Source of the DNA: a virus
Taxonomy: Duplodnaviria; Heunggongvirae; Uroviricota; Caudoviricetes
Reading direction: 5' to 3' (one strand)
DNA: 57,087 bases
Virus record (IMG/VR): IMGVR_UViG_2561511241_000005
Span: 1-57,087 of that record
This document shows positions 6,260-51,576 of the stretch, piece by piece; the first letter of the stretch is position 1; each line of letters begins with the position of its first letter. The position numbers and the translations under genes are program-made. The notes below the pieces were generated by a model. That model did no database searches. It was not told where the DNA came from and saw nothing but the letters and a program-made list of their open reading frames with translations.

Positions 6260-6292
6260 AACGTTATTTCCTCAGGTTTACATTTTGTATAT

Positions 6293-38020: not shown

Positions 38021-38701
38021 ATGATTCATGTTCGAACTGGACAATTTGCGGCTGTAGTCGATGGCAGGCGGTATGTATTTAATCCCTGTTTCGCCGCAAT
38101 GGCTAAGATCGGCAGTGACAGAGAACTGGTAGAATACTTCGCAACCATCCACGGTGGCAAATATCCATCACGATTGCCAGCAGATCCAGACCTACGCAAT
38201 CGCATTCTGGCGCGGTGTTATGGTGAGATAGTGCAAACGTCTATGCGCATCCTGAAATGTTGCTCAGAAGAGGAAACAGGGCCATTGCTTGGCGAATGCT
38301 GGTTTACTCCTTCTGGCAAGTTACGACTAAAACCCGGATTGATGCCTACTGATGACGTCATCACGCTTGCGCAGCATTGCATGTACCACGGTTTAATCGG
38401 TGATGGACCGGAAGAATACGCTGGAGAGATCCGGGAAGGTGAATATAAGCCGACATTTGACGTCCTTGAATTCGTTTATTCTGCCGTCGCTCACCTGGGA
38501 TTATCTGAATCAGAAGCATGGAATATGACAATGACCGGATATAGGGCCGCTGTGCGCGCTAAAACGCCGCCAGACGAAAGAAACGAGAGAAGCAAGCCAA
38601 ATGTTCACATAAATAAACGTGCTTATGATGAGCAAATGGAGGCCGCTAAAAAGGCACTGGAAAGAATGAAAAATCGCAAGCAAGAAAAAGCCCGGAATTA
38701 A
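38021..38701 (+). CDS. Putative tail assembly chaperone
   Basis: ATG 38021 with AGGGTGA RBS; position between major tail and tape-measure genes. Confidence 0.4.
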   Translation: MIHVRTGQFAAVVDGRRYVFNPCFAAMAKIGSDRELVEYFATIHGGKYPSRLPADPDLRNRILARCYGEIVQTSMRILKCCSEEETGPLLGECWFTPSGKLRLKPGLMPTDDVITLAQHCMYHGLIGDGPEEYAGEIREGEYKPTFDVLEFVYSAVAHLGLSESEAWNMTMTGYRAAVRAKTPPDERNERSKPNVHINKRAYDEQMEAAKKALERMKNRKQEKARN

Positions 38702-38715
38702 CCGGGCCTTTATTT

Positions 38716-39018
38716 TTATTTGTATGCTGCAAAGCGCCATCTTGCCTCTTCTAAATCATGGACTGTGTACACGTTATCGTAAAGATAAGTCGCGATCTGT
38801 GCTTTCTGTACGTCAGTTGCGTCAGAAAACTCCATGTTGACGAAAGTTAAAGCATCTATGTAGTGTTTAAACATCTTCTTGTTGACGCATAGGGCGTAAA
38901 TCAATACAGCAGGCCAACAAATCAGAGCGCCAATAAATGCAAGGAACATATTAAGATGTTTTTTCTCGGCTACAACCATAGTTACCACAAATCCAATAAA
39001 GAGAATTACTAGTTCCAT
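38716..39018 (-). CDS. membrane protein (opposite-strand cassette 1)
   Basis: 100 aa; two N-terminal TM helices; AAGGCGG RBS. Confidence 0.5.
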   Translation of the reverse strand: MELVILFIGFVVTMVVAEKKHLNMFLAFIGALICWPAVLIYALCVNKKMFKHYIDALTFVNMEFSDATDVQKAQIATYLYDNVYTVHDLEEARWRFAAYK

Positions 39019-39029
39019 GATGCACCGCC

Positions 39030-39137
39030 TTATTTACATTCGCCTTTTATTGTTAATGCCAGCACGAATACAGCCATTACATTAAAAGCCACCCATGCTG
39101 ATATATACACTTCTATGATGCTTTTGATGGTATCCAT
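39030..39137 (-). CDS. micro-ORF, 35-aa TM peptide (cassette 1)
   Basis: MDTIKSIIEVYISAWVAFNVMAVFVLALTIKGECK; GAGG RBS. Confidence 0.3.
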   Translation of the reverse strand: MDTIKSIIEVYISAWVAFNVMAVFVLALTIKGECK

Positions 39138-39148
39138 GTGCGCCTCGC

Positions 39149-39238
39149 TTAATTTTTGTTTTTAAGTGCTTTTAACATTTCTTCGATGAAGTCCGCATAG
39201 CGTTCATGTTCGTTGGGACGGTAGTTTACGTTTTTCAT
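39149..39238 (-). CDS. micro-ORF, 29-aa peptide (cassette 1)
   Basis: MKNVNYRPNEHERYADFIEEMLKALKNKN; AGAGGA RBS. Confidence 0.3.
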   Translation of the reverse strand: MKNVNYRPNEHERYADFIEEMLKALKNKN

Positions 39239-39487
39239 TTTCTTATCCTCTTTTGCTTCCTCCGGTTAATCCGGCCTTTTAAATCCCTTTGCTGTTTCCT
39301 TAGTTTTAGGGGTTTTCGCCTCCCTCGTTCCATCGGTTAGCTGTGCTTCAAGTCTTAATCCTTTATATCCTTCGACCTTCTTTTATCTCTCTCATCCTTC
39401 ACCTTCTTTATACAAAATGTATTCGTTGAAATGAAGCCATTTTGTATAAAATAGAGACATAGATCACATTTTGTATGAGGTTAAATC

Positions 39488-41827
39488 ATGGCTACCAGTG
39501 TAGGTACAATTTATTACGAGGTTGATGCAAAAACTGGTCAACTTCTCGTTGCACAACGACAGGCAGACCAGGCCTTTGACCGTATAGAGCGCGGCGCAAA
39601 ACAGGCTGACCGCCAGGTAAACACCCTGAAAACATCCATCAAAGCACTGACCAGGGTCATCCATCTGCTACTTGCTGCGGAAGCAGTGCGCCAATTTATG
39701 GATATGGCGGAACAAGCAAAAATGCTACGCGTAAAAATCAAAATGCTTACTGGCGATGCGGAGTCCGCCGGACGGGTTTTCGACGGCCTGAAAGCAATAT
39801 CGAAAGAAACAGGCCAGAGCCTGAAAGATACTGGCGAATTATGGCAAGGACTTGCCATCTCATTAAAAAACACATCCGCTACTGAAGGCCAGTTACTTAA
39901 CCTTGTTGGCACTATTCAGAAAATGGGGGCGTTAGGTGGTGCATCAGCGGAACAGATGTCTAACTCAATGCGCCAGTTCCGCCAGGCTATCGACGGCGGC
40001 GTACTCCGTGCTGAAGAATTCAACAGCCTTCTTGAGAACACCCCGACCATCGTACAGACAATGGCCCGCCAGATGGGATTATCAATGGGCCAGTTCCGCG
40101 CAGAAATGCTGGACGGCAAGATCACGGCTGAAAGGATGGTCAACGCGATCCAGGCGGCTACGCAGGAAACAAACGATAAGTTTGCTCAGTTGCCGCGCAC
40201 ATCCGGTACGGCTATCAATGAGCTTAAAGTAGAGATCATGGGCCTTGTTGAGCAGTTGGACGATCTTTTCGGCGTATCAGACGGCGTGGTATCAGCTATC
40301 GACTTAATCACGAAGGGCGTTAAAGGACTTGGCGAGGGCGCTAAATTCGCTAAAACATGCTTTGACACTCTCAAAACGGCTGGGAGTGAATTCATCGACA
40401 TGTTTGACGACGTTGCTGTTAAAGCTGGTGAGGTGGCGGAAGAGATCATTAGAATGGTAACGCCAATAAAAGCGCTAATGGATGGCTACAAATGGATGAA
40501 GGAAATTGTCGATAAACGCAAGGAAGAGCTAAACAGTAACAACGAGAAAAAATTCGGCCCTACCGTCGGCAAGGTCATGACGTTTGCAAACGATATTAAA
40601 AACGCGACTGCCGCTTATGATGAGTTCATGCAGAAACAGGGTGAGGCTAACGACGGCAAGATCACCGGATTCGATCAGCCAGTTGATAAGCCGAAAAAAC
40701 CGAAAAAAGAGAAGAAATCAGAAGCTGATCGGCTTGGTGACAAAGGCATAAGCGTTTCTGACCAGTACAACAAAGACGCCGCCGCCATGCGCAAAGCATT
40801 AGAGAACGGCAAGGCCATTGATGCTGCATTCGCCCAGGGTAAAATCACACTCCTTGAATACCGCGCCGCGCAAAAAGGGATCGGCAAAGAACTGAAGGAA
40901 GAATTAGCGCAAATCCCTGTAGATGAATTGCGTGATAAATGGTCGCAAATAGTTAGCCCGATGGACCAGCTAAAAGGCGAGGTTGACCCTATTCAGCAGG
41001 TACAGAATGAATGGGCCATTCGTAAGCAAATGCTTATCGACCTGGGGGCTACCGAAGCGCAACAGAAACAGGAATTGTTAGCCTATGAGCAACAGATCCG
41101 CGATCTGAAGTGGGAGCAGTGGCAAGCGCAAAGCGACACTAACGGCCTGATCGGTGATTGCGTTAATGGCCTTAAAGGTGGTATGAGCAATGCACTTGTT
41201 GGCCTGTTAAACGGTACTCAATCATTGAGCGATGTTTTTGCTAACTTAGGTAGCAATATCCTCGGCAATATTGGTAGCAGACTTTCAGATATAGCCGCTG
41301 ACTGGATAGCAGATCAAATCATGATGGAGACACAAAGCAAGGCCACGCAAGCAAGTACAACGGCGGGCGCGGTAGCGGCGCAAGGCCAGATTGCTGCGGC
41401 GGCGGCCCCGGCGGCGGCGGCAACAGCGGCGTCAACTGGCGGCGCATGGGCTGCGGCTGGTTCTGCGGCACTAACTGCGATCATGTCGCTGGCTACGTCA
41501 ATTTTCGGCGGTGGTCGCTTTAATGGTGGTAGCGTTATTGGTGGCAATATGTACCGCGTAGGGGAACATAACAGGCCGGAGCTATTCCAGACATCTAACG
41601 GAAATCAATATATGATCCCAGGCGAGAATGGCAGGGTTATTCCTGGGCGTGATATTGGCGGTGGCGTCGGCATTAGTATGCCTGTCAATATCAACATTCA
41701 GACCACAAACGGATTTAGCGACGAAGACAGTCGCAGACTTGAACAAACAATGGAACGTGTAGCAATGAAAATGATAACAAGGGAATCACAAAGACCAGGC
41801 GGAATATTGCAACCGCGCCGCAAATAA
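39488..41827 (+). CDS. Tail tape measure protein
   Basis: 779 aa; long alpha-helical protein with Gly/Ala-rich segment; position. Confidence 0.85.
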   Translation: MATSVGTIYYEVDAKTGQLLVAQRQADQAFDRIERGAKQADRQVNTLKTSIKALTRVIHLLLAAEAVRQFMDMAEQAKMLRVKIKMLTGDAESAGRVFDGLKAISKETGQSLKDTGELWQGLAISLKNTSATEGQLLNLVGTIQKMGALGGASAEQMSNSMRQFRQAIDGGVLRAEEFNSLLENTPTIVQTMARQMGLSMGQFRAEMLDGKITAERMVNAIQAATQETNDKFAQLPRTSGTAINELKVEIMGLVEQLDDLFGVSDGVVSAIDLITKGVKGLGEGAKFAKTCFDTLKTAGSEFIDMFDDVAVKAGEVAEEIIRMVTPIKALMDGYKWMKEIVDKRKEELNSNNEKKFGPTVGKVMTFANDIKNATAAYDEFMQKQGEANDGKITGFDQPVDKPKKPKKEKKSEADRLGDKGISVSDQYNKDAAAMRKALENGKAIDAAFAQGKITLLEYRAAQKGIGKELKEELAQIPVDELRDKWSQIVSPMDQLKGEVDPIQQVQNEWAIRKQMLIDLGATEAQQKQELLAYEQQIRDLKWEQWQAQSDTNGLIGDCVNGLKGGMSNALVGLLNGTQSLSDVFANLGSNILGNIGSRLSDIAADWIADQIMMETQSKATQASTTAGAVAAQGQIAAAAAPAAAATAASTGGAWAAAGSAALTAIMSLATSIFGGGRFNGGSVIGGNMYRVGEHNRPELFQTSNGNQYMIPGENGRVIPGRDIGGGVGISMPVNINIQTTNGFSDEDSRRLEQTMERVAMKMITRESQRPGGILQPRRK

Positions 41828-41858
41828 ACAAAGCCCCGGCATTGTGCCGGGGTTATCT
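41828..41858. terminator. Bidirectional rho-independent terminator
   Basis: CCCCGGCA-ttgt-GCCGGGG hairpin with T-rich flanks on both strands. Confidence 0.55.
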
Positions 41859-41859
41859 T

Positions 41860-42039
41860 TTATTCAATTTCATCATTTTTAAATTCGCCGTTTACATAAA
41901 GCTGTAATGCATTTATTAGTTCTGCGGCTTGCTTTTTATCTATTACGATCAATTCGCAGTCGCACTCAAGCCATAATCTTTCGTCATACTCAATGCTAAG
42001 AGTAATACGTCTGCATTCTTCCGTTTCGTTAATAATCAT
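41860..42039 (-). CDS. hypothetical acidic protein (cassette 2)
   Basis: ATG 42037-42039 with GGAG RBS; 59 aa. Confidence 0.45.
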   Translation of the reverse strand: MIINETEECRRITLSIEYDERLWLECDCELIVIDKKQAAELINALQLYVNGEFKNDEIE

Positions 42040-42077
42040 TATCAATCTCCACTGTGCTATTAATCACATAAATAAAT

Positions 42078-42248
42078 TTACTCAAAACTTGTATATCCTC
42101 TTTCAATTTTCCCGCCTCTTACACTTCTTGCAAATACTGCGTCAGTATGCTTGAAAAATGGTTCAGTATATGTGTCTCCTTTGCTATCCATCCATTTTAC
42201 GATCCAGGCCATACGTTTTACATTGCTTTTATTTGCCGGGTTTTTCAT
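42078..42248 (-). CDS. small hypothetical protein (cassette 2)
   Basis: about 56 aa; GGAGG RBS; hand-translated. Confidence 0.35.
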   Translation of the reverse strand: MKNPANKSNVKRMAWIVKWMDSKGDTYTEPFFKHTDAVFARSVRGGKIERGYTSFE

Positions 42249-42266
42249 TTTATTTTCCTCCGCAAA

Positions 42267-42359
42267 TTACAATCTTCCGTTTCTTGCTATGTAGCTGCGA
42301 GCAAACATCACTTGCCAGATGTTCCAGATCTCACGCCAGGTGAATTTATCGTCATTCAT
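42267..42359 (-). CDS. micro-ORF, 30 aa (cassette 2)
   Basis: MNDDKFTWREIWNIWQVMFARSYIARNGRL; GAGG RBS. Confidence 0.25.
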   Translation of the reverse strand: MNDDKFTWREIWNIWQVMFARSYIARNGRL

Positions 42360-42366
42360 ACCTACC

Positions 42367-42621
42367 TCACTTATGCGCACCTTTGACGCCGCAGTGCCTG
42401 TTATATTCAAGATGATCGATGATTAACCATACCTTGAGGTCTTCACTGAACAGCCGCCAATCAGGGTTGATGTCAAATTTAAAACCGTATCCGTCGCGTA
42501 ACTTTTTGGGGTGGGCTTCTTTCTTCAAAAATGCTTTAAGAAGTTCCTTGCCTTTCTTGATGATCCGGTCATGTGCGTTTTTCTGTGCTTTCAGGTTTTT
42601 GTCAATCGCTACCAGTTTCAT
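42367..42621 (-). CDS. hypothetical basic protein (cassette 2)
   Basis: 84 aa; AAGGGGGA RBS. Confidence 0.5.
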   Translation of the reverse strand: MKLVAIDKNLKAQKNAHDRIIKKGKELLKAFLKKEAHPKKLRDGYGFKFDINPDWRLFSEDLKVWLIIDHLEYNRHCGVKGAHK

Positions 42622-42788
42622 AACATCCCCCTTTGTGCAACGTCTTTCTTATTTGCTTTCTGTATACAATATGTGATTGCCAAAGTGAAGCCATTTTGAA
42701 AACTGGCTATAATCATTGTGATGAGGATCTCATTTTTCGCGTAGAATCGCGTAAAGGTATATACAAAATGTAACTTATAGGGGGATTT

Positions 42789-43142
42789 ATGCCTGAAGTG
42801 TTCCGATGGACACCACAAAGAAGCTACAGCGTAAACAGTGAGCCTAACGTGTCTGTCATTAAACTGGGTGATGGGTATGAACAGCGCCAGACAAAAGGGA
42901 TTAACCCTTTACTTGATAGCTATACGCTGGTCTTTAAAGGTACGAGCGCAGGATGCGGTGACGCCGGAAACGTAGCGCTACAGGTTGACGCATTTTTAAG
43001 AGCACGTTGCGCGGTCGAGGCGTTTTACTGGACCCCATCCACTGACGGGGTGCAAAGGCTTTTTGTATGCAGAAAGTGGAGCATGACGAAAGACGGCCCG
43101 GTATGCACTCTTAATGCAACGTTTGAACAAGTCGTCAATTAA
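42789..43142 (+). CDS. Minor tail protein M (lambda gpM-like)
   Basis: 117 aa; FRW near N-terminus, GDGY...Q motif and C-terminal FEQVVN as in lambda M. Confidence 0.8.
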   Translation: MPEVFRWTPQRSYSVNSEPNVSVIKLGDGYEQRQTKGINPLLDSYTLVFKGTSAGCGDAGNVALQVDAFLRARCAVEAFYWTPSTDGVQRLFVCRKWSMTKDGPVCTLNATFEQVVN

Positions 43143-43155
43143 TGGAGGTGTCAAT

Positions 43156-43341
43156 ATGTATGCTATTTGTGTAGTTGACCTCGCGGGCGCTTTTACATTG
43201 TTTGACGACTACGAGATCAACGACCTTACTGTAAAATCTGATAATGGTGAGACCTGGTATCTTCATGACATGGGCGACGGTTATGTTGGATGCAGATCAA
43301 GAGAAGGTAAGGAGGTCTTATTCTTACTTGACGGCGTATAA
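43156..43341 (+). CDS. hypothetical protein
   Basis: 61 aa; GGAGGTG RBS; followed by terminator. Confidence 0.45.
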   Translation: MYAICVVDLAGAFTLFDDYEINDLTVKSDNGETWYLHDMGDGYVGCRSREGKEVLFLLDGV

Positions 43342-43348
43342 ACACGAC

Positions 43349-43372
43349 CCCGCGCGAAGCGGGGTTTTACAT
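43349..43372. terminator. Rho-independent terminator
   Basis: CCCCGCGCGAAGCGGGG hairpin followed by TTTT. Confidence 0.55.
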
Positions 43373-43442: not shown

Positions 43443-43691
43443 TCATAATGTTTCCCTTAAGTATGTTAACCCCTTATCAGTGACGAATGAGTGATTAACC
43501 TGGTTTTCATCCGTCATGATGATGAATAACTTTTCCTGTAGGTATTTCGCTTTTGGGTACAGTGTTAAACAGACCTGGTACAGTATCCCGCGCTCAATCA
43601 GCAAATCAATAAATTCGTGCTCATGATAACCGATGAGGCGGGCGGCCTGTTTCAACGTGTACACATAATCACCGTGATTGCGCCGCCCCAT
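43443..43691 (-). CDS. hypothetical protein, possible HTH (cassette 3)
   Basis: 82 aa from ATG 43689-43691. Confidence 0.45.
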   Translation of the reverse strand: MGRRNHGDYVYTLKQAARLIGYHEHEFIDLLIERGILYQVCLTLYPKAKYLQEKLFIIMTDENQVNHSFVTDKGLTYLRETL

Positions 43692-43696
43692 GATTT

Positions 43697-43936
43697 TTAT
43701 TCCCACGTTTCAAAAAATAGCATATCAGGCACAAAATCATCACCGCAAGCAGTTCCGTACCCTTTCACCCTTGTTCCAGAAATATCAAGCACTGTCAGCG
43801 GCACAAAGTTTAAACAGTTATCAACAGTAAAATAATTGCCAGAAGATGTTTTGAATAATGGGTATCTATCTTTTATATTAAAATCCCCCCTTTTGTTAGA
43901 TGTAACAACGAGTTTTATAATACCAATCATTTTCAT
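43697..43936 (-). CDS. hypothetical protein (cassette 3)
   Basis: 79 aa ORF. Confidence 0.45.
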   Translation of the reverse strand: MKMIGIIKLVVTSNKRGDFNIKDRYPLFKTSSGNYFTVDNCLNFVPLTVLDISGTRVKGYGTACGDDFVPDMLFFETWE

Positions 43937-43951
43937 ATATTGGCCTACTAT

Positions 43952-44305
43952 TTATTTGCCATTAAAACAGCCCAGGTTATCTATGCAGAAGTCTTTTGCC
44001 GCTTTTTCGTATTCGCGTTTTGCTTCTGGATCGTCTGCCGGGAAACCTTTTGCGTGTATTTCACCAGGGCAAGACTGATCCATAGAATCAGCAAATTCAA
44101 CATTGACGTTAAAGTTAATATCTTTCGGGTTCATCTCTTCCACCTTGTCCGGTACTTGGACCGGAGTAATATCAAAATCTCGAGCGTTAGACCAACAGCG
44201 AAGTAATTCGCGACCCTCATCACGCGCAGCTGTATATGTGTCAAATAGCCCCATGCTTTCCCATTCACATTTATCAGTCCACACGTCTAATCTGTATTTT
44301 TTCAT
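43952..44305 (-). CDS. hypothetical protein (cassette 3)
   Basis: 117 aa; GGGAGG RBS. Confidence 0.5.
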   Translation of the reverse strand: MKKYRLDVWTDKCEWESMGLFDTYTAARDEGRELLRCWSNARDFDITPVQVPDKVEEMNPKDINFNVNVEFADSMDQSCPGEIHAKGFPADDPEAKREYEKAAKDFCIDNLGCFNGK

Positions 44306-44477
44306 TTTTTGTTATAACCTCCCATTTGACAGGTTCGATCCTGTACCCCAAAACGCGTTCGTCTTCAGCGAGTAAGAGCGCGTCGGTAAGTGCCTCGCCT
44401 TCATCTTTATACAGGGCCACAGTCATTTCCCTGCCATCCGCAAGGAACACCGTCAACCTCCACACCTTATCATCCAT
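44274..44477 (-). CDS. hypothetical acidic protein (cassette 3)
   Basis: ATG 44475-44477 with GGAGGTG RBS. Confidence 0.4.
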   Translation of the reverse strand: MDDKVWRLTVFLADGREMTVALYKDEGEALTDALLLAEDERVLGYRIEPVKWEVITKNEKIQIRRVD

Positions 44478-44607
44478 ATCACACCTCCGCGCCATTTTGT
44501 TAACTGTGCTTCCGTTTGAGTAAAATATACATATTGTAAAAAGCGCGATCAACCATTTCGGTATGATTTAGCGTGACGCAGATCACAAAAAAGCGAAAGG
44601 TGATAAA

Positions 44608-46533: not shown

Positions 46534-49500
46534 ATGAGTAGCGGCGGCGGCAAAGCCAAAACACCAACATTATTAAACGATAACCTGTATCATAAACAGT
46601 TTTATCGTGTTTTAGACATTCTCAGCGAGGGGCCGATATACGGCCCGGTAAACCAGAAAGCGCCATTAAACAGCGTAATGCTTAATGACACACCTGTAAC
46701 TGACGCGAACGGAAATACATCAATCCCGGGGATTAGTATAGCCTGGCGCAATGGCACGGCTGACCAATCGCCGATTAATGGTTTTAACGCTATCGAATCA
46801 ACAGTTATTGTCAACGCAAAGGTAACTCACGATACGCCAATAATCAGGACTGTTTCAGATCCAAACGTTAACCGCGTAAGGCTGAATGTTGGCGTTGATG
46901 CTCTCGTTCAGTCAGATGATAAGGGCAATCAATATAACACGTCAGTCATGTTAATGGTTGATGTTAAGCCATCATCATCATCTACGTGGTCGCTGGTTAA
47001 AAACATTACAATCGGGCCTGGTAAACAGAGTGGTGAATACCTTGAAGCTCACGTTATCAACGCGCCGGATGAAAAGCCGTTTGATATTCGCGTTCGTCGC
47101 GTAACGCCAGACAGCAAAAGCGATCTTCTTCGTAATGATACGCGGTGGAGCAGTTACAGCGAGATAATCGACGATAACCTGTCTTACCCTCATACCGCTG
47201 TAGCTGGCGCGGTAATTGACCATGACCAGTATACTGATACTCCTACCCGCACCTATCACCTGCGTGGGCTGATTGTTGATGTGCCGGACAACTATAACCC
47301 TGAAACGCGCGCGTATTCCGGTTTATGGCTTGGTGGCTTTAAAAAAGCGTATACCAATAACCCTGCATGGCTTTTCCGGTATCTGGTTAAAAATGAACGT
47401 TTCGGACTTGCTCGCCACGCTGGTTACATTGACGTTGACGACGGCGCATTATATACGCTTTCTCAATACTGTGACCAGTTGGTTGATGATGGCTACGGTG
47501 GCCTTGAGCCTCGCATGACGCTTAACGCTTACATCACAGAGCAAATGAGCGCACGCGACTTACTGGACAATATCGCCGGGATGTTCAGGGGTATCGCATT
47601 ATGGGACGGGCAACGCCTTACCGTGATGATTGATGCACCACAAGACCCGATCGCCACCATTACAAATGCAAACGTCGTTGATGGCGAGTTTACTCGTTCA
47701 AGTATCGCCCGCGCAGAATGCTACAACGCAGTGATCGTATCATGGACTGACCCGGAAAACGGATGGGAGCAATCAAAAGAGTATGTGGCAGACGATGAGC
47801 TGATCGCCCGTGATGGTTACAACGAAACCACGTTAGAGGCGTTCGGGTGCACATCACGCGGGCAAGCATACCGCGCGGGCAAGTGGCTGATAGAAACAGC
47901 AAAACGCGAGCCGTCAAAATTCACGTTTAAAATGGCCCGTGACGCGATTCACTTTACGCCAGGGGATATTATCGAGATACTCGACAATAACCGCGCAGGC
48001 GCTCGTTTAGGCGGTCGCATCGTGGCGAACAATGGCAAGGTGATAACGGTCGATAAGGTTGATTCGGAATACATCACCGCAGGCGATACCATTAGTTTGC
48101 TTGATAGTGATGGCAAATTTAAGAAACACCAGATCACCGGGGTGAGCGGAAACAAAATCACACTGGCGGCGGCCCCGTCATGGATTCGAAACGGCACTGT
48201 TTTTGCTGTATCGACTGAATCTGCAAAACCTGTTCTGTGTCGAATTATCAGCGTGGCAGAAACAGAAAATAATAGCGTGTACACCATCGAGGCCGCACAG
48301 CACGACCAAAACAAGCAAGCTGTAGTCGATGAAGGCGCAATCTTTGAGGTCAACAACGACACGCTTAATCACTTCCGCGTGCCGAACATTGAAAACCTGA
48401 AGGTGTTAAATGTTGGTTCTGAAACTGTTCAATGTCGCGCTACATGGGAAACACAGACGACAACGCATCGCCTGACCTTTGAGATCCGCGTATATAACGA
48501 CGAAGGCCGCGTGGTGGCAGCTTATGAAACAACGAATTACCGCTATGATTTTTATGGCCTCGACGCTGGCAGCTACACGCTTGGTATTCGCGGGCGTAAT
48601 GACACTGGCATGAAGGGTGCGGAAAGTATTGTGGATCTGGTTATTGGTGCGCCAGCGGCCCCGATTGGAGTCAATTGGGTTTCCGGCGTCTTCCAGGCAA
48701 CGGTATATCCGATCAGCAAAACAACCCTGACCACTGATACAGCATACGAGTTTTATTACTCAGGTGAAAACCAGATCACAGACCCATCAAAAGTAACCAC
48801 GCTGGCGCAATTCACCGGGCGCGGATACCAATGGACTTTTGGCGGCATGAACACGGGCCATAAATATTACGTTTATGTGCGCACGCGTAACGCTTTCGGT
48901 GTGTCAGACTTCGTTGAGGCATCAGGCAAACCTACAGAAAACTTCGACGAAATCAGCGACTACGTGATGAAGGATGTCATGGAGTCAGAACAGTTTAAGG
49001 ACATGATTGGCGATATTAAAGATCTTGGCGACCGTGCCGACCTTATCGAAAGCGCTACCAATGACCTTAAGACTGCTACTGACAACCTCAAAACTGCAAC
49101 TGATAACCTGACAAACATCACTGACGAATTGAGGGTTGACACGGACAACCTGACAAACATCACTGACGAATTGAGGACTGATACGGACGGCCTAATCACA
49201 GAAACTGGGGCCATAAAAGCTGACACGGACACACTGAAAAAAGAAACGGAAGATCTCTATAAAAAGGTTGAGGAAAACGCCGACGATATTGGACAGCATG
49301 AGGCAAGAATAGATTCTCTTGAGGTATCTAGCGAAAAAGTTGGCAGTGAACTGGCGCAAGCAAAAGCAAGCCTGCAAAACGCGTCATTGGCGCTTATCAA
49401 TAACTCACTTGCACAGACCAACACGCGGGTTACTCTCACCGCTCAGTACAAGAAAGGTAGGACAGAAACGAAGGCCGAAATTGACCGCATTGACAACGTT

Positions 49501-51576
49501 ATTGCTGAAGAGAAAAAGGCAACGGCTGAATCACTGAAAACCATCACGGCAGAAATGAACACGATGGATTCTAACCTCAAAGGTCAGATCTCAAACGTGG
49601 AACACGCAGTGGCTGACGAGGCCAGCGCCCGCGCTGAAGCCATTAACGGTGTGAATGCTTCAATAGGCAATCTCGACAAGAAAACCGACGCCAGCATCAA
49701 TAGACTTGATCAAGCTATTGCAGACGAAACGAACGCCCGCACACAGGCAGTCAGTGACGTTAACGCGAGTATCTCATCGCTCGACAAGAAAACAGACGCC
49801 AGCGTTAAACGCTTGGATCAAGCAATAGCAGACGAAACCAGTGCAAGAACTGAAGCTATCAGCAGTGTTAACGCCTCAATAAACAGCATTGACACTAAGG
49901 TTACAAGCAACGTAACACGTATTGATAAAGCCATCGCAGACGAAACGAAGGCACGCACAGACGCGATCAGCGGCGTCAAAGCAAGTATTGACACACTTGA
50001 AGGTAACACCAATTCAGAAGTTAAACGCCTGGACCAGGCAATTTCTGACGAGGCCAGCGCACGCAGCCAGGCGGTGAGCGATGTTAAAGCGTCAATAAGC
50101 AATCTTGAAAGCAAAACTGACGCAAGTGTTTCCCGTCTCGACAAGGCTATCGCTGACGAAACACAGGCAAGAAGCGCTGCAATAACAGATGTTAAGGCTG
50201 ATTTGACAACGCTCGAAAACAGCACAAACGCCAGCGTCAAACGACTTGATCAGGCGATTGCCGACGAATCAAGCGCACGCGCTGAAGCAATCTCAGGCAT
50301 TAACGCAGAGATCGGCAGCATTGAAAACAACGTTGACAAAAACAGCGATGATATAAATCAGACCAAAGCAAGCCTGCAAAACGCTTCGATTGCGCTTATT
50401 AATAACTCAATCGCTCAAACCAACACTCGCGTTACCCTTACGGCCCAGTACAAGAAAGGTCGCAAGGAAACAAACGCGCAGATTGATCGTATTGACAGCG
50501 TTATCGCTGAAGAGAAAAAGGCTACAGCCGAAGCAATTGGCGTGGTAAAAGCATCGATCACGGATCTCGACAAGAAAACCAACGCCAGCGTTTCACGTCT
50601 CGATAAGGCCATTGCAGACGAAACCAACGCACGCAGCGAGTCAATCAGCGGTGTTAACGCAAGCATTAACACGCTTGAAAGCAACACAGAATCAGAGGTT
50701 AGCAGACTGGACCAGGCAATTGCTGACGAGGCAAGCGCCAGAGCACAAGCCATCAGTGGCGTGAATGCGTCAATTTCAACCCTTGATGGCAAAGTTACAA
50801 GCAACGTGACCCGTATCGACAAGGCCATCGCTGACGAAACGAAGGCCCGCACTGACGCGATAAGTAGTCTTAACTCATCGCTTACCAGTACGATTAATTC
50901 GAAAGTATCTGAAGTATCCACAGCACTTTCTACGCATGAAGCATCAAGCGCGGAAAAATTCAACCAGATCTCAGCGTCTTTCGAAGCGGTAAACTCAAGC
51001 ATCACAGAATGGTCGCAGACCATGACAACGGCGGACGAGGCATTATCAACCAAAATTGATCAGCTGACAGTGACCGTTAACGGGAACACCACGGCGATCG
51101 AGACAACATCTAAAGCGTTAACCGACTTCAAAGGTAACGTTGATGCGTCATTGTCAATCAAGATTGCCACCGACAACAACGGCATGAAATACGCAACAGG
51201 TATGTCACTTGGCCTGACTGGTAGCGGTACTAACGTTCAATCGCAGTGTATTTTCCTTGTTGACCGCTTCGTGTTAATGACTGCGGCAAACGGCACATAT
51301 ACAACGCCTTTCTATGTGTCTAATGGTGCAATGTATGTGAAAGAAGCGTTTATTAAAGACGCCTCGATCACTAACGCGAAAATAGGTTCATACATCCAGT
51401 CAAATAACTATGTTTCCGGCAGCACTGGCTGGAAACTGGATAAATCAGGGACGTTTGAAAACTATGGCGCGGTAAGTGGCGAAGGTGCAATGAAATTAAC
51501 TAATACCACTATCTCGGTAAAAGACGGCAACGGGCGTTTACGCGTACAAATTGGTAGGATTACAGGATCATGGTAG
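46534..51576 (+). CDS. Central tail fibre / host specificity protein J-like with long repetitive coiled-coil insertion
   Basis: 1680 aa; N-terminal 800 aa align with lambda J (LSEGPIYGPV, FGCTSRGQAYRAGKWL); internal 36-aa repeats. Confidence 0.9.
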   Translation: MSSGGGKAKTPTLLNDNLYHKQFYRVLDILSEGPIYGPVNQKAPLNSVMLNDTPVTDANGNTSIPGISIAWRNGTADQSPINGFNAIESTVIVNAKVTHDTPIIRTVSDPNVNRVRLNVGVDALVQSDDKGNQYNTSVMLMVDVKPSSSSTWSLVKNITIGPGKQSGEYLEAHVINAPDEKPFDIRVRRVTPDSKSDLLRNDTRWSSYSEIIDDNLSYPHTAVAGAVIDHDQYTDTPTRTYHLRGLIVDVPDNYNPETRAYSGLWLGGFKKAYTNNPAWLFRYLVKNERFGLARHAGYIDVDDGALYTLSQYCDQLVDDGYGGLEPRMTLNAYITEQMSARDLLDNIAGMFRGIALWDGQRLTVMIDAPQDPIATITNANVVDGEFTRSSIARAECYNAVIVSWTDPENGWEQSKEYVADDELIARDGYNETTLEAFGCTSRGQAYRAGKWLIETAKREPSKFTFKMARDAIHFTPGDIIEILDNNRAGARLGGRIVANNGKVITVDKVDSEYITAGDTISLLDSDGKFKKHQITGVSGNKITLAAAPSWIRNGTVFAVSTESAKPVLCRIISVAETENNSVYTIEAAQHDQNKQAVVDEGAIFEVNNDTLNHFRVPNIENLKVLNVGSETVQCRATWETQTTTHRLTFEIRVYNDEGRVVAAYETTNYRYDFYGLDAGSYTLGIRGRNDTGMKGAESIVDLVIGAPAAPIGVNWVSGVFQATVYPISKTTLTTDTAYEFYYSGENQITDPSKVTTLAQFTGRGYQWTFGGMNTGHKYYVYVRTRNAFGVSDFVEASGKPTENFDEISDYVMKDVMESEQFKDMIGDIKDLGDRADLIESATNDLKTATDNLKTATDNLTNITDELRVDTDNLTNITDELRTDTDGLITETGAIKADTDTLKKETEDLYKKVEENADDIGQHEARIDSLEVSSEKVGSELAQAKASLQNASLALINNSLAQTNTRVTLTAQYKKGRTETKAEIDRIDNVIAEEKKATAESLKTITAEMNTMDSNLKGQISNVEHAVADEASARAEAINGVNASIGNLDKKTDASINRLDQAIADETNARTQAVSDVNASISSLDKKTDASVKRLDQAIADETSARTEAISSVNASINSIDTKVTSNVTRIDKAIADETKARTDAISGVKASIDTLEGNTNSEVKRLDQAISDEASARSQAVSDVKASISNLESKTDASVSRLDKAIADETQARSAAITDVKADLTTLENSTNASVKRLDQAIADESSARAEAISGINAEIGSIENNVDKNSDDINQTKASLQNASIALINNSIAQTNTRVTLTAQYKKGRKETNAQIDRIDSVIAEEKKATAEAIGVVKASITDLDKKTNASVSRLDKAIADETNARSESISGVNASINTLESNTESEVSRLDQAIADEASARAQAISGVNASISTLDGKVTSNVTRIDKAIADETKARTDAISSLNSSLTSTINSKVSEVSTALSTHEASSAEKFNQISASFEAVNSSITEWSQTMTTADEALSTKIDQLTVTVNGNTTAIETTSKALTDFKGNVDASLSIKIATDNNGMKYATGMSLGLTGSGTNVQSQCIFLVDRFVLMTAANGTYTTPFYVSNGAMYVKEAFIKDASITNAKIGSYIQSNNYVSGSTGWKLDKSGTFENYGAVSGEGAMKLTNTTISVKDGNGRLRVQIGRITGSW
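49105..49188 (+). repeat. 42-bp perfect-to-near-perfect tandem duplication inside J
   Basis: aacctgacaaacatcactgacgaattgagg(g/a)(t/c)tga(c/t)acggac twice. Confidence 0.8.
49577..50890 (+). repeat. Array of about 11 in-frame 108-bp (36-aa) repeats plus a duplicated 170-bp block (49363-49533 and 50364-50532)
   Basis: Repeated LDKKTDASVxRLDQAIADETxARxxAISxVNASIxx units visible in translation and DNA. Confidence 0.8.

Follow-up and report, generated by a model that had tools for sequence, protein, structure and literature searches.

We analyzed a stretch of viral DNA of 57,087 nucleotides, which is referred to below as the window, and focused on a cassette of four small genes that all lie on the minus strand between the tape-measure gene and gpM. 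The first-pass annotation had described four minus-strand ORFs at this site, each with a ribosome-binding site, and had singled out a basic protein of 84 aa and an acidic protein of 59 aa; all four were located, each with a Shine-Dalgarno site, and the isoelectric points calculated for the two proteins (A and D) agree with the charges that had been assigned to them. The genes and their flanks are as follows.

39488-41827, plus strand: tape-measure gene, the left flank of the cassette
41860-42039, minus strand: gene D, 59 aa, acidic, pI 4.3
42078-42248, minus strand: gene C, 56 aa, basic, pI 9.9
42267-42359, minus strand: gene B, 30 aa from ATG, Trp-rich (MNDDKFTWREIWNIWQVMFARSYIARNGRL), pI 10.0
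42367-42621, minus strand: gene A, 84 aa, basic, pI 9.8 (calculated)
42789-43142, plus strand: gpM, the right flank (Pfam Phage_min_tail, E = 5e-29)

The Shine-Dalgarno-like sites are found 4-8 nt 5′ of the ATG codons (GGGGGA for A, GAGGT for B, GGAGG for C and GGAG for D), with a gap of 4 nt between GAGGT and ATG in B and of 8 nt between GGAGG and ATG in C, and B starts 7 nt past the stop codon of A. The GC content of the cassette is 0.37-0.42, compared to 0.46-0.57 for the tail genes. A further ORF of 66 aa with a TTG start (42618-42818, minus strand) overlaps both the start of gpM and, by ATGA, that of A; it falls within conserved intergenic control DNA, where no gene is annotated for the relatives in RefSeq, and it is probably not a gene.

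The region shares ~83-87% nucleotide identity with the mEp021-group (mEpimmI) coliphages mEp044, mEp010, mEp554, mEp515, mEp013 and mEp021, as well as with the phage MagusPhagus, and matching prophages were present in 19 of 5,426 complete E. coli genomes. Judged by its sequence, the window represents an mEp021-like (mEpimmI) prophage of E. coli. A protein identical to A is deposited as GenBank AEE56357.1. The paper that defined the mEpimmI group comprised 48 genomes, a UMNK88 prophage (55.8 kb) among them, and nothing on the cassette genes A-D is contained in its main text or supplements (PMC11893012).

A set of 84 related loci, drawn from phages in GenBank, E. coli genomes and IMG/VR, represented 46 distinct cassette sequences, and we calculated dN/dS by the Nei-Gojobori method for 12-34 distinct relatives per gene, in the annotated frame and, as controls, in the two shifted frames.

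Gene A: dN/dS 0.08 in frame; 1.1-1.4 in the shifted frames
Gene B: dN/dS 0.04 in frame, with synonymous sites saturated; 1.4-1.6 in the shifted frames
Gene C: dN/dS 0.14 in frame; 1.4-2.4 in the shifted frames
Gene D: dN/dS 0.17 in frame; 1.1-1.3 in the shifted frames

Since the ratios are low in frame and above 1 in the shifted frames, this pattern of substitution indicates that A, B, C and D, including the 30-aa B, are true protein-coding genes under purifying selection. The first-pass annotation had named unconserved reading frames, or confident homology to ordinary tail-assembly components, as grounds for refuting it; in-frame ratios of 0.04-0.17 show the frames to be conserved, and no match of A-D to a tail or chaperone family was found in Pfam, PHROGs or NCBIfam. 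The genes are all very short and their site is inside the tail cluster, as might be expected of chance reading frames or of ordinary tail-assembly components, but this explanation is hardly credible: the former is opposed by the frame-specific constraint and by the ribosome-binding sites, and the latter by the missing tail-family match, by the opposite strand and separate terminator, and by the presence of A-D varying among phages that share their tail genes.

Control signals and the three antisense cassettes

The cassette and its right-hand neighbor are delimited by the following elements.

41832-41854, both strands: bidirectional intrinsic terminator, common to the tape-measure gene (plus) and the cassette (minus)
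42622-42660, minus strand: operon 5′ leader with the junction left by the loss of a gene, Z (from alignment to relatives; see below)
42661-42689, minus strand: promoter-like element of the cassette, TTCACT (42689-42684), a 17-nt spacer and TATACA (42666-42661)
42685-42788, plus strand: gpM control region, with GTGAAG, 17 nt and TATAAT (42708-42713)
42734-42756, plus strand: CGCG hairpin motif, conserved, within the gpM control region
42760-42771, plus strand: TATACAAAATGT, 5′ of the gpM ribosome-binding site

The bidirectional terminator that had been proposed for the left boundary was borne out, as the stem-loop scores on both strands, carries a T-rich tail on both, and has folding energies of -19.5 kcal/mol (plus strand) and -18.2 kcal/mol (minus strand), far below shuffled controls (z = -4.8 and -3.8, respectively). 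In addition, ARNold terminators are annotated at the equivalent site in mEp044 and mEp515. The promoter-like region with a perfect TATAAT that had been placed at the right boundary held up only in part: the TATAAT belongs to the plus strand and is directed toward gpM, whereas the cassette strand carries the weaker TTCACT-17-TATACA. This element is a weak match to the consensus, with no T at -7, and falls under the scan threshold. Nevertheless, it probably starts cassette transcription; the hexamers TTCAC[A/T/G] and TATA[C/T]A are conserved across 83 loci, which comprise 25 distinct sequences, and the spacer measures 17 nt in all of them while its letters vary.

The divergent control region common to the cassette and gpM spans 167 bp, and the part that controls gpM is nearly invariant in eight relatives. 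The hairpin motif within it, TTTTCGCGTAGnAnCGCGTAAA (a 4-bp CGCG stem and a 6-nt loop), has two copies in the window compared to 0 expected, both on the plus strand, one at 30618-30640 just upstream of a 464-aa gene (start 30641) and the other at 42734-42756 upstream of gpM. It is invariant in the eight relatives and, in the leaders of late genes, may act as an RNA or protein-binding signal. The second motif, TATACAAAATGT, had been noted as recurrent, and is indeed enriched across the window, with 22 sites at two or fewer mismatches compared to 7.8 expected (for instance at 6280, 9771, 10452, 13863, 17483, 23723, 39409, 39437, 39466, 42663 and 42760). The sites are mostly intergenic and just 5′ of ribosome-binding sites, in early and late regions alike, and those at 39409 and 39437 form an 11-bp inverted repeat. 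A scan of 38.5-45 kb against Rfam returned two chance-level matches and no family.

The tail cluster contains three cassettes in antisense orientation (minus strand), of which this is one. All three have a bidirectional terminator at their end and are preceded by AAATGG and a promoter-like element of common geometry.

38716-39333, minus strand: cassette 1, terminator at 38686-38711, promoter-like element TTCATT-17-TATAAA
41860-42621, minus strand: cassette 2 (genes A-D), terminator at 41832-41854, promoter-like element TTCACT-17-TATACA
43443-44495, minus strand: cassette 3, terminator at 43347-43365, promoter-like element TTGATC-17-TATATT

Cassettes 1 and 2 have control regions that are 78% alike across 41 nt, and one gene of cassette 3 encodes a KilAC/ANT antirepressor domain (Pfam E = 4e-7).

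Gene A and the variable genes downstream of it

The first-pass annotation had recognized no family signature in any of the four proteins. This did not hold for A, which matches the Pfam family PF24732 (ParE_like) above the cut-off (E = 6e-11, 42.6 bits, cut-off 24.4, residues 19-75) and phrog_1525 as well, and some copies of which are labeled "ParE family toxin-like protein" in RefSeq. The name of PF24732 is a curator's label, and we know of no member of the family that has been tested. Structure prediction, which had been suggested as a check on the 84-aa protein, gave an AlphaFold2 model (20-sequence alignment) with a mean pLDDT of 88.4, consisting of a beta hairpin, a long helix (18-32), three strands and a short helix (70-77). 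The best structural matches to this model were toxins of the RelE/ParE superfamily, with moderate scores; they were top-listed by Foldseek, weakly (E of at least 0.14, TM 0.41-0.49). Searches of PDB sequences with A alone and with an A profile returned nothing meaningful and matched no solved toxin, and the NCBIfam toxin models did not match A. R56 and H70, at positions typical of the RelE/ParE superfamily, are invariant across the PF24732 family, and the C-terminal His83 is conserved within the mEpimmI phage clade only. We conclude with moderate confidence that A is, on the basis of its predicted model, a minimal, trimmed protein of the RelE/ParE toxin fold.

Like the type II toxins of this superfamily (YoeB-YefM, YafQ-DinJ, RelBE, HigBA and the prophage-borne PaaA2-ParE2 of E. 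coli O157), A is small and basic, and it is equal in length to the 84-aa E. coli YoeB chain 2a6q_E. These toxins have an N-terminal helical hairpin, whereas A has one long helix and an extra N-terminal beta hairpin, and the resemblance, moderate in structure, does not extend to the sequence level for any solved toxin. The other PF24732 proteins, found in phages and prophages of Kosakonia, Aeromonas and Enterobacteriaceae, are 72-73 aa long and match the Pfam model with E = 1e-18 to 1e-21; the "HigB-like protein" of Serratia phage vB_SspS_OS31 is an example that has both the Pfam family and the carriage by a phage in common with A. They share the motifs HP.K, W-RLLS and H..YN with A, but are without its N-terminal hairpin and C-terminal GVKGAHK. 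In HK97-like phages, and in prophages across Enterobacteriaceae, their genes are found on the main strand within early or nin-like regions, translationally coupled to variable neighbors (three or more kinds upstream and several kinds downstream), in contrast to the antisense tail-cluster cassette of A. Relatives also occur in ~140-kb viral contigs, where Z is absent, and relatives of A in other phages and prophages are without D. An exhaustive representative search with A yielded two real distant relatives only (P0104 and P0106); P0105 and P0107 are repetitive proteins and were judged spurious, and a profile search of genome contigs with the A alignment gave no match.

The settings of these relatives could suggest that A is a non-toxic or lytic-cycle-only protein with a RelE/ParE fold, for instance a host-takeover or regulatory factor, and that the cassette is expressed in lytic development rather than in lysogens and so has no need of an antitoxin. 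The early or nin-like arrays of HK97-like phages and the ~140-kb contigs, with their variable neighbors, are consistent with this, as are the occurrence of weak D relatives in the early-gene arrays of virulent siphophages and the recurrence of the control-region motifs upstream of many phage genes. However, a position antisense to the late tail operon, together with a separate terminator, is the layout typical of prophage-expressed morons and noncontiguous operons, and the invariance of R56 and H70 across the family argues against a non-toxic protein, so that we regard this explanation as quite unlikely.

Comparison of the 46 cassettes revealed 16 architectures between constant tape-measure and gpM flanks. 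Unlike the genes downstream of it, a core formed by Z and A is nearly universal. B is present in 32 of the cassettes, C in 25 and D in 16, with a divergent form of D (D′) in six more, which brings the cassettes with D or D′ to 22 of 46; an extra 49-aa gene occurs in six, and an HNH endonuclease gene is found on the cassette strand in two and on the opposite strand in one more, while the cassette of mEp021 contains zinc-ribbon genes. By this distribution, each of B, C and D is a module of its own, gained and lost among related phages. No antitoxin family was recognized for any of the three in Pfam, PHROGs, NCBIfam or PADLOC, and the last of these, which covers known and candidate defence proteins, returned no match to any of the four proteins at E <= 1 and thus no known defence family. 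C gave sub-threshold family matches only and no match to PDB sequences, and among sequenced phage records it is confined to mEpimmI phages. D is predicted to form three beta strands followed by one helix, in which no antitoxin-like family or fold was recognized; a homologue search with D defined a narrow family in E. coli prophages only, and its weak relatives lie in early-gene arrays of virulent siphophages in which the A-family search found no A.

These results bear on the suggestion of the first-pass annotation that A (basic) and D (acidic) could be partners, as toxin and antitoxin or as defence and anti-defence. The opposite charges (pI 9.8 and 4.3), the common operon and the toxin fold of A all speak for such a pair. 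Nonetheless, D or D′ is missing from 24 of the 46 cassettes that carry A, B and C stand between the two genes, D has no antitoxin-like family or fold, and an A-like gene without a D-like one, or the reverse, is found in unrelated phages, among them the virulent phages with D-like genes in which no A was detected. Because the neighbors of A are variable both here and elsewhere, neither A and D nor A and any other gene of the window make a fixed pair, and we consider the A-D pairing highly improbable.

Two further observations concern the individual modules. Codon 8 of B, normally Trp, is an in-frame stop in two IMG/VR loci (L020 and L034), which looks like occasional pseudogenisation. The HNH gene is located between A and the 49-aa gene in mEp515 (L003 3729-4235) and L041, and between gpM and Z, on the opposite strand, in L023 and L081; the different insertion points in different phages suggest that it is a mobile homing endonuclease for which the cassette is a landing site.

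Gene Z and its relation to A

Z encodes an acidic protein of 51 aa (pI 5.1) on the same strand as A, ~18-22 nt upstream of it, in all of the GenBank and RefSeq relatives inspected. It is present in 44 of the 46 related cassettes, between the operon leader and A, and A adjoins it in all 42 of the loci that were retrieved via Z. Its only match was to phrog_29810, as searches of Z against Pfam, antitoxin families and, with a Z profile, the PDB gave none, and its homologues form a narrow family in E. coli prophages only. The annotated gene mEp044_99 (109 aa, L001 5145-5474) is apparently Z annotated with too long an N-terminus, which reads across the conserved control region; all other relatives fit the 51-aa form that begins with MERYVVV.

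A tblastn search of the whole window with Z found nothing, and alignment to the relatives showed that ~175 nt are missing, with the leader fused to the start of A. The layout is identical in 24 of 24 contigs that encode the exact A protein, with no gene called between gpM and A, and a second Z-less lineage, L009 (94.5% nucleotide identity, architecture A-B-C), has the identical junction, indicating that the loss of Z is no assembly artefact. As read from these alignments, Z has been lost from this lineage and A is now the first gene of the operon. No inactivating mutations were found in A of the Z-less lineages, each of its residues is also found in Z-carrying relatives, and between the window and L009 it differs by eight synonymous and two non-synonymous changes. 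Intact, free of private residues and with few non-synonymous changes, A has thus stayed constrained without Z. Furthermore, the three Z-less loci are the sole ones with TTCACT at -35 (the others have TTCACA or TTCACG), together with a divergent spacer, which could be a compensatory down-regulation.

The small acidic gene ahead of A in the operon of the relatives is a further likeness to RelE/ParE type II systems; these have antitoxins of known families, whereas none is recognizable in the window and Z is of no known family. One explanation is that Z and A are a genuine type II toxin-antitoxin module acting in addiction or abortive infection, and that the window carries an orphan active toxin, tolerated through Z, or an antitoxin that cross-reacts, provided from another site in the host, through replacement of Z by B, or through expression lowered at the promoter. 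This would be consistent with the strict linkage of Z and A, with eight cassettes in which the two stand alone between the promoter region and the terminator, with the -35 hexamer and spacer unique to the Z-less loci, and with the retention of B in both Z-less cassettes. Several findings are at odds with it. Z matches no antitoxin family, Pfam family or PDB sequence, PADLOC and NCBIfam gave no match, and Z and A do not co-vary, since one and the same Z protein can accompany A alleles with just 62-63% identity to each other's type. Moreover, the Z-less prophages amount to at least 24 contigs and a second diverged lineage, their A is intact and under purifying selection with no private substitutions, and PF24732 relatives occur in many phages and prophages without a fixed neighbor. 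We therefore hold an orphan active toxin to be unlikely. It is similarly doubtful, and in our estimate improbable, that Z and A are an unrecognized two-gene toxin-antitoxin or defence module, universal in mEpimmI phages, with Z (phrog_29810) as a new antitoxin family and an antisense site that couples activity to late transcription; if they were, a Z-less lineage with an intact, constrained A would mean that the toxin is conditionally active, for instance triggered by superinfection.

A moron-type operon as the favored explanation

The explanation that we favor, with moderate confidence, is that the cassette is a moron-type operon, accessory and modular, that encodes four separate small proteins, the first a solitary effector of the RelE/ParE fold, with no toxin-antitoxin pair. 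Of the features that mark a moron, it has its own terminator, a presence/absence polymorphism and a deviant base composition, while a recognizable cognate antitoxin gene adjoining A, the mark of a type II toxin-antitoxin system, is absent in the window. The operon would be autonomous and antisense within the tail-gene cluster of an mEpimmI prophage, with transcription starting from the weak promoter-like element in the 167-bp control region divergent from gpM and ending at the bidirectional terminator common to the tape-measure gene; convergent late tail transcription may damp its expression in lytic growth. A would be a conditional or mild effector against the host or rival phages, for instance by blocking translation or gyrase in a RelE-like or ParE-like manner, Z would not be strictly needed for its activity to be tolerated, and the cassette products would probably serve phage-host or phage-phage conflict. 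The observation made in the first-pass annotation is thus confirmed, and its interpretation is partly supported.

If the moron-type reading is true, the Z-less lineage is a natural experiment, in which a RelE/ParE-fold gene without its usual partner is nevertheless intact and under selection, and it would bear on whether phage-borne ParE_like (PF24732) proteins are real toxins and on the role of Z. These findings overturn no current ideas, and the cassette seems to be an ordinary phage add-on with a toxin-fold gene, whose natural loss of a partner is its one modestly notable feature; it is also a small and easily testable system.

The closest parallels that we considered are architectural, and no homology is claimed for them. 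Defence morons of late operons, such as HK97 gp15 and JBD26 Tab, are likewise small genes added between structural genes, and they have in common with the cassette a separate terminator, a promoter-like element, a lower GC content and a variable presence. Tab of the P. aeruginosa phage JBD26 is an 83-aa moron in the late operon with a cognate counter-defence partner, anti-Tab (PMC10884400). The likeness is one of architecture, and the cassette differs in being made up of four opposite-strand genes. In phi80, taiEcA, which encodes a 26-kDa protein, lies antisense within the Q-dependent late operon, with atiEcA, and is expressed in the lysogen and damped by late transcription (PMC11364771). An opposite-strand gene likewise interrupts a late morphogenetic transcription unit in this noncontiguous operon, although phi80 has one antisense gene in its late operon and the phage of the window has three antisense cassettes. 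With a layout of the phi80 type, the antisense gene could be expressed in lysogens and be subject to interference by late transcripts reading through. The mEpimmI phages are a published coliphage group that is functionally unannotated, and their tail operon, split by three antisense cassettes with one promoter geometry, resembles in its layout the noncontiguous operons that are used for prophage defence.

Two other genes of the window were noted. Directly 3′ of gpM, a conserved gene of ~61 aa (43156-43341, plus strand; phrog_3249, E = 2.5e-20) is present on the tail strand in all relatives. The J-like gene of 1680 aa (46534-51576), for the central tail fibre and host specificity, contains diverged repeats at 49600-50900 with a period of 108 nt (36 aa).
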